Position numbers and translations under genes: made by a program. A stretch of 64,000 bases of DNA from Escherichia coli (GTDB lineage Bacteria > Pseudomonadota > Gammaproteobacteria > Enterobacterales > Enterobacteriaceae). The notes under the pieces are model-generated. The model was not told where the DNA came from. It was given only the letters and a program-made list of their open reading frames with translations, and did not search any database. Of the stretch, positions 21,554 through 21,735 are shown piece by piece (positions within the stretch are counted from its first letter, which is position 1; every line of letters begins with the position of its first letter). Where the stretch lies: the NCBI RefSeq assembly GCF_003334405.1, contig NZ_QOWM01000004.1; one strand, written 5' to 3'.

Positions 21554-21735
21554 ATATTCTCGTCATACTTCAAGTTGCATGTGCTGCGTCTGCGTTCGCT
21601 CACCCCAGTCACTTACTTATGTAAGCTCCTGGGGATTCACTCGCTTGTCGCCTTCCTGCAACTCGAATTATTTAGAGTATATCCATTTATTATCTTTCTG
21701 CGCACTTCACGGTGCGCAGATATCTGGAGCATTTG

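Follow-up and report, generated by a model that had tools for sequence, protein, structure and literature searches.

ERIC/IRU elements are defined as MITEs of 127 bp with terminal inverted repeats, TA termini and a target-site duplication, and open frames are known within them (reviews). In Yersinia, ERICs are co-transcribed with the flanking genes, and for one orientation of the element the transcripts of the upstream gene are scarcer than those of the downstream gene (reviews). The explanation given is that ribosomes unmask an RNase E site located within the right-hand inverted repeat (reviews). A second kind of described system comprises the intercistronic stability stem-loops, such as the REP sequences in malEFG and hisJQMP and the puf hairpins, and 5' stabilisers of the ompA type. 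REP/BIME units have a palindromic consensus of about 35 bp and are present in hundreds of copies.

The spacer between ybhI and ybhJ of Escherichia coli can be compared with both kinds of system. In the window, by which we mean the whole stretch of 64,000 nt that was analysed and which shows 13 mismatches to K-12 MG1655 in 49,987 bases, ybhI encodes an anion permease of the DASS family and ybhJ an aconitase-family hydratase. Upstream of ybhI lie ybhH and, in divergent orientation, ybhD, which encodes a LysR regulator. The cluster, which codes for a PrpF-like isomerase, a DASS transporter and an aconitase-family hydratase, is of tricarboxylate type and apparently horizontally mobile. With the ybhI stop codon ending at 21553 and the ybhJ ATG starting at 21736, the spacer has the 182 nt stated in the original prediction. 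As RNA, the complete spacer folds at -58.5 kcal/mol compared to -37.2 kcal/mol in shuffled sequences (z -6.0). Two hairpins had been placed in this spacer, with RNase processing or stability, translational control or a protein operator as conceivable roles. The features of the spacer and its borders are the following.

21551-21553 (+), ybhI stop codon TAA; the ERIC starts 1 nt past the stop, at TA
21555-21681 (+), element assigned to the ERIC/IRU miniature inverted-repeat elements, 127 bp, TA at both ends (copy alignment, copy number)
21555-21579 (+), left terminal inverted repeat of the ERIC (inverted-repeat search, fold)
21597-21640 (+), conserved core of the ERIC including hairpin 1 at 21603-21634 (primer matches, fold)
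21657-21681 (+), right terminal inverted repeat of the ERIC, AU-rich in the ybhI-sense RNA, with AAUUA at 21666-21670 (inverted-repeat search, sequence)
21682-21696 (+), AU-rich single-stranded linker UCCAUUUAUUAUCUU from the ERIC to hairpin 2 (orthologue comparison)
21697-21720 (+), hairpin 2, UCUGCGCAC-UUCACG-GUGCGCAGA (inverted-repeat search, fold, orthologue comparison)
21726-21738 (+), ybhJ Shine-Dalgarno (SD) GGAG at 21726-21729, 6-nt gap and ATG at 21736-21738 (sequence, orthologue comparison)
21726-21750 (+), weak predicted hairpin, GGA and AUUUGA paired with the first ybhJ codons, about -5 kcal/mol (71-nt fold, z -2.5)

Hairpin 1 has arms at 21603-21616 and 21621-21634 that are 79% complementary. 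The free-energy calculation suggested alongside the original prediction gave -15.1 kcal/mol for this hairpin (z -4.3) and -16.2 kcal/mol for hairpin 2 (z -5.6), and in both cases 0 of 200 dinucleotide shuffles were equally stable, so that two stable hairpins exist where they had been placed. Hairpin 1 is the inner part of an imperfect palindrome of 127-129 nt, the outer arms of which are located at 21554-21579 and 21657-21682. The standard ERIC-PCR primers ERIC2 (21597-21618, minus strand) and ERIC1R (21619-21640, plus strand), whose identity was confirmed in the literature, both match exactly over 22 of 22 positions, where the chance expectation is 0. A 129-nt query of the element was found at 55,263 places and in all of the 5,426 complete E. 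coli genomes, with a median of 11 and up to 21 copies per genome. Copies at cusC-cusF, at psuT-yeiL and beside gyrA are 98-99% identical to the ybhI copy, and each of them is intergenic. The limits of 127 bp follow from three other E. coli copies and a Citrobacter copy, which align from TATAC to GTATA, after which the similarity stops sharply.

In size, TA termini, inverted repeats, primer core, dispersed copies and RNA hairpin, the ybhI element resembles the ERIC/IRU class throughout. Compared to other E. coli copies, it carries one substitution at the left end (TATTC instead of TATAC) and is otherwise structurally typical. The primer matches, the copy number, the TA termini, the terminal inverted repeats and the filled and empty sites described below leave hardly any doubt that the element at 21555-21681 is an ERIC/IRU; on the two points that could speak against this identity, the flanks do align as an empty site and other copies do exist. 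Hairpin 1 is thus the core of a dispersed repeat, which the original prediction missed, and not a local feature of the spacer comparable to hairpin 2. This part of the analysis is known biology; it corrects the earlier reading and adds no new biology. It also implies that scans of enterobacterial spacers for regulatory hairpins will find ERIC cores again and again, and these should be masked first.

The ybhI-sense RNA of the ERIC reads UAUUCUCGUCAUAC...UUUAGAGUAUA. The whole element is predicted to form a long imperfect hairpin, and the sense fold (-39.6 kcal/mol, z -4.8) falls short of the antisense fold (-49.3 kcal/mol, z -8.2) by about 10 kcal/mol. In the right arm of the sense RNA, AAUUA fits the RAUUW motif of RNase E and is a candidate cleavage site, whereas the opposite orientation has no match to this motif. 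Rfam is without an ERIC family. Its model RF02818 (V_AS5), for a Vibrio antisense RNA, matches the minus strand of the element over its full length (model positions 1-129, window 21559-21682) as well as two more E. coli ERIC copies (L127 1509-1628 and L128 1505-1628). As the scores of 44-48 bits (E 1e-7 to 1e-8) are far under the gathering score of 96, membership of the ERIC in V_AS5 was rejected; V_AS5 looks like a transcribed Vibrio relative of ERIC and not the reverse. In E. coli TUM2367 (L132; equivalent to window 21621-21634), the apex of the ERIC is GTAAGTGACTGGGG in place of GTAAGCTCCTGGGG, and the tip forms a perfect palindrome, as if by copying of one arm onto its partner.

The history of the insertion can be read from related genomes. 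E. albertii shares the ERIC of E. coli at the same position, and the E. coli arrangement is TAA-A-TA[ERIC]TA-TCC. C. youngae provides an empty site with a single TA, TAAT-TA-AATTAC (L003 2930-3003), and a metagenomic Citrobacter locus (L110, reverse strand, ATG at 1006) provides a filled site, TAAC-TA[ERIC]TA-AATTAC. The two differ by the element and one TA, which corresponds to a TA target-site duplication. In the metagenomic locus, the ERIC is oriented as in E. coli and likewise starts 1 nt past the ybhI stop, suggesting that an ERIC probably landed at this position independently in two lineages. A further copy at the cusC-cusF operon junction of K-12 (L127 1492-1651) lies 6 nt past the upstream stop in the orientation of the ybhI copy. 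De Gregorio reportedly found in 2005 that ERICs favour stop-codon-proximal sites in one orientation. The two stop-proximal insertions in Citrobacter and Escherichia and the cusC copy fit with such a preference. The closely related Citrobacter genomes thus offer filled and empty ERIC sites for a comparison of operon stoichiometry, and the cusC-cusF copy is a second natural test case for a model of stop-proximal ERICs.

Hairpin 2 is of a different kind. It is a perfect inverted repeat of 9 bp (21697-21705 and 21712-21720; its 5' arm reversed reads CACGCGTC), one pair longer than the 8-bp stem of the original prediction, whose end at 21719, 6 nt before GGAG, was correct. As RNA, it comprises 10 pairs including one U·G. 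At the K-12 locus, an equally stable structure between -50 and -11 was found for just one of 46 genes, namely the intrinsic terminator of fiu upstream of ybiX. The region of hairpin 2 is single copy (median of one place per genome) and occurs in 5,339 of 5,426 E. coli genomes. Hence, a REP/BIME unit was rejected. In a permissive Rfam search of 21000-22300, the V_AS5 match on the ERIC was the sole hit, and hairpin 2 had no match even at E up to 10. The variants sampled in E. coli touch the loop (TUM2367, TTTCCG), the base immediately preceding the stem (CV261, O157) and the spacer between SD and ATG (A32, one base 3' of GGAG), and the 8-bp core is unchanged in every one of them. Insertion sequences have also entered this region: in E. 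coli ET650 (L134 401-493), an IS1 directly adjoins the 3' end of hairpin 2, at GTGCGCAG|GGTGATGCTGCC, and parts ybhJ from its leader, and strain DAM (H56) carries an IS1A within the same 582-bp region.

A hairpin is located at the same place in E. albertii, C. youngae, C. gillenii, Citrobacter FP75, the metagenomic L110, the Citrobacter locus L137, Edwardsiella tarda, E. hoshinae and Intestinirhabdus alba, the last with a spacer of 197 nt. Spacers that carry the hairpin and lack the ERIC measure 63 nt in C. youngae, 68 nt in FP75, 91 nt in C. gillenii, 84 nt in L137, 85 nt in E. tarda and 73 nt in E. hoshinae. As these orthologous spacers have the hairpin without the ERIC, hairpin 2 is older than the ERIC insertion. 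The gap between SD and ATG is 6 nt in 13 of 13 orthologues, an AU-rich stretch takes the place of the linker in all of them, and in most species the core stem stops 4-6 nt before GGAG. The Citrobacter group has an additional conserved lower helix, GUUG/CAAU, with which the structure extends to within 2 nt of GGAG. The arms of the stem (5' / 3') differ between lineages as follows.

E. coli, CUGCGCAC / GUGCGCAG
C. youngae, CUGUGCUC / GAGCACAG
L137 (Citrobacter), CCGUGCAUG / CAUGCACGG
Citrobacter FP75, CUGUGCA / UGCGCAG, one U·G
E. tarda, stem of 11 pairs, 4 of which are G·U

With four G·U pairs, the E. tarda stem would be viable only as RNA. RNAalifold predicted the same helix independently on a MAFFT alignment of 10 sequences. 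In the pair count, 88.8% of the cells are paired and three pairs show double changes. The covariation score of 0.397 exceeds that of shuffled alignments (0.22 ± 0.04; reached in 0 of 500) and that obtained with slid partners (at most 0.13). The loops vary (UUCACG, UUUACG, UUUCCG, UGUUCA, UGGUUG, GAAA and AUU). Hairpin 2 is missing or degenerate in two of the 13 orthologues: Citrobacter sp. Cm046 (L139) has lost the 5' arm (z -0.7), and L141 has a spacer of 26 nt without the hairpin. The z-scores are also unconvincing for I. alba (-1.0) and for L140 (+0.7, for a scored segment of 42 nt). Since the comparison comprises only about 8-10 independent lineages, the covariation is suggestive and short of statistically secure. 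Homologues of Firmicutes and of the Klebsiella/Providencia type have different upstream genes and no hairpin 2, and were left out of the comparison; a metagenome pattern scan for orthologues yielded one useful locus, L110, besides unrelated genes and distant homologues in other contexts. Taken together, the kept pairing makes it rather probable that hairpin 2 has been selected as an RNA structure.

Like the intercistronic stability stem-loops and the 5' stabilisers of the ompA type, hairpin 2 has a stable GC-rich stem without a U-tract, lies between co-oriented cistrons, follows an AU-rich single-stranded stretch and is conserved in structure. In contrast to REP/BIME it is single copy, and with its 4-6 nt to the downstream SD in most species it is much nearer to the following gene than typical 3' stabilisers. 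Hairpin 2 is an undescribed yet ordinary-looking conserved intercistronic stem-loop. It provides a small but real lead: a stem-loop of conserved structure within an uncharacterised cluster, at the point where ybhI and ybhJ meet.

Our preferred reading, with a probability of roughly 55%, is that the ERIC and hairpin 2 are two unrelated RNA elements that are co-transcribed with the genes and might cause differential decay or processing of the ybhHI and ybhJ mRNA. Among the roles suggested in the original prediction, RNase processing or stability is the best-supported class and is reported for Yersinia ERICs, and the mechanism at this locus is our extrapolation. Like many Yersinia copies, the ybhI ERIC is located directly past a stop codon (review). 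As its left arm starts about 1-2 nt past the ybhI stop, a ribosome terminating on ybhI would cover this adjoining arm and melt it. The AU-rich right arm, with AAUUA at 21666-21670, would thereby be freed and exposed to RNase E, and a cut could uncouple the mRNA levels of ybhHI and ybhJ. Co-transcription, the RNase E cut and any stabilising effect at ybhI-ybhJ are putative, and the assignment of the ybhI ERIC to the destabilising orientation depends on the position of the RAUUW motif.

Hairpin 2 may in turn act as a nuclease barrier. It could form a 5' stem-loop that shields ybhJ after a cut in the AU-rich stretch upstream of it, or a 3' block to exonucleases that protects ybhHI; both options would leave the ybhJ SD free. 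The GC-rich stem, the AU-rich upstream stretch, the unconserved loop and the free SD fit better with a nuclease barrier than with a sequence-specific operator, and we propose this specific role only tentatively. If both elements do uncouple the expression of transporter and hydratase, the locus would be a convenient natural test case for how a MITE that inserts beside an older RNA element alters the stoichiometry of an operon.

Alternatively, neither element might be useful, with the ERIC as selfish DNA tolerated because the spacer is non-essential and hairpin 2 as a decaying relic, e.g., of a ybhI terminator that has lost its U-tract and is still visible merely through the close kinship of the compared species. 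The degenerate or missing hairpin in L139 and L141 and the small number of independent lineages would agree with this, as would the poor expression of the locus under laboratory conditions and the lack of reported transcript ends in the spacer. Furthermore, Wilson and Sharp are said to have noted in 2006 that the E. coli ERIC copies are generally seen as old and largely immobile. However, the stems differ at several positions among Escherichia, three Citrobacter lineages and Edwardsiella, and double changes together with G·U intermediates preserve the pairing, whereas decay would bring mismatches. The 8-bp core spared in the sampled E. coli variants and the distance of 4-6 nt to GGAG kept in most hairpin-bearing species likewise argue against a relic, which we regard as less likely, though quite conceivable. 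A role of the hairpins in terminating or attenuating transcription, as terminators that lack a U-tract or as trimmed ends of Rho-dependent transcripts, appears exceedingly unlikely. The stable GC-rich stems past a stop codon resemble Rho-independent terminators, the untranslated spacer is long with 182 nt, and the reported genes that a ybhD mutant de-represses along with ybhH do not include ybhJ. In contrast to such terminators, the tails following hairpin 1 (AUUCACUCG) and hairpin 2 (AUAUCUGGAG) contain no U-tract, and a promoter and terminator consensus scan called neither inside 21554-21735. An intrinsic terminator was thus rejected for both hairpins, in line with the original prediction. 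No 3' end in the spacer is found in the Term-seq supplements (Adams 2021), and both the ybhJ SD within 6 nt of the stem and the conserved synteny would rather fit an operon.

Hairpin 2 might also be an operator, at the level of either RNA or DNA. As a translational operator, it would bind a protein or sRNA, or nucleate a longer helix that takes in the SD, and ybhJ would be controlled independently of ybhI. Its short distance to GGAG in most orthologues, the lower helix of Citrobacter that reaches to 2 nt from GGAG, and the E. coli CCA at 21683-85 that is able to pair with UGG of the SD are consistent with this idea. Yet the variable loops argue against sequence-specific recognition, the SD is outside the conserved helix, and its predicted pairing is weak and without clear dependence on hairpin 2. 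In-silico disruption or compensation of the stem, or removal of the ERIC, caused no clear change in the predicted accessibility of the SD, and an 'insulator' role was not supported. We consider translational control by hairpin 2 improbable, and even more so a DNA palindrome that serves as an operator, at which a dimeric regulator, e.g., YbhD or Nac, would control ybhJ from an internal promoter. The latter could explain the perfect 9-bp inverted repeat with its 6-bp spacer, and a -10-like hexamer, TATTAT, is located just upstream at 21688-21693; moreover, the YbhD study treats ybhJ apart from the ybhHI cluster. However, the scan called no sigma-70-like promoter within the spacer, no acceptable -35 is discernible by eye, and the reported targets of YbhD are ybhH and ybhI. 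The half-sites are not conserved, and asymmetries of the G·U type break the palindrome in FP75 and E. tarda. The protein operator of the original prediction is thus unsupported for hairpin 2, in which the structure is kept and the sequences of stem and loop are not. A CRP or LysR box was rejected on account of the half-sites that vary between species.

The aconitase family allows a further idea. The aconitases IRP1, AcnA and AcnB of E. coli and CitB of B. subtilis moonlight as mRNA-binding proteins. By analogy, apo-YbhJ could bind the stem-loop in its own leader and tune the translation or stability of ybhJ to the iron or oxidative status. An IRE has a stem with a bulged C, capped by a conserved apical loop of 6 nt, CAGUGN. 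As the loop of hairpin 2 is unconserved and an IRE-like loop and bulge are absent, such an autoregulation is scarcely credible. Consistently, an IRE-like aconitase/IRP site was rejected, as the loops vary and no bulge is conserved across the orthologues.

In literature mentioning ybhJ we found nothing on the ybhI-ybhJ spacer; the SMRT-Cappable-seq data contain no ybh entries, and the supplements of the YbhD study contain no expression values for ybhJ. The Term-seq supplements list only one 3' end here, which lies near the ybhJ 3' end at MG1655 805363 (-) and is annotated as antisense to ybhJ (Adams 2021). Opposite the ybhJ coding region, ECS012 has been described as a candidate sRNA in cis-antisense position; its length is 66 nt, with a northern signal at about 120 nt. 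The antisense RNA at about 23990-24230 of the window, i.e., at the ybhJ 3' end and in the convergent ybhJ-ybhC spacer, is probably the ybhC 3' UTR entering ybhJ.

Two minor features of the sense strand concern the start of ybhJ. The significance of the weak predicted hairpin at 21726-21750 is doubtful. An ATG-initiated open frame of 57 codons (21579-21752, plus strand) crosses the ERIC and hairpin 2 into the ybhJ start; it has no obvious SD and is probably not expressed.

The distribution of ybhJ itself is uneven. In a scan of genome contigs with ybhJ (21736-23997), Escherichia, Citrobacter, Intestinirhabdus and Edwardsiella match with 81-97% identity, followed by Lachnospiraceae and other Clostridia with 67-74% (loci L008-L081). 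A protein search adds copies from Klebsiella and Enterobacter at 74-77%. The patchy occurrence in enterobacteria and such close homologues in Clostridia hint at horizontal transfer. A paralogue of the Klebsiella/Providencia type, with a CitMHS transporter gene upstream (L084, L085 and L143), has an AU-rich hairpin of 11 bp, UUUUUAUUCGU-AGAGUC-ACGAAUAAAAG, which spans the transporter stop at a distance of about 45-55 nt from the ATG of the downstream hydratase and represents a different intercistronic structure at an analogous junction.
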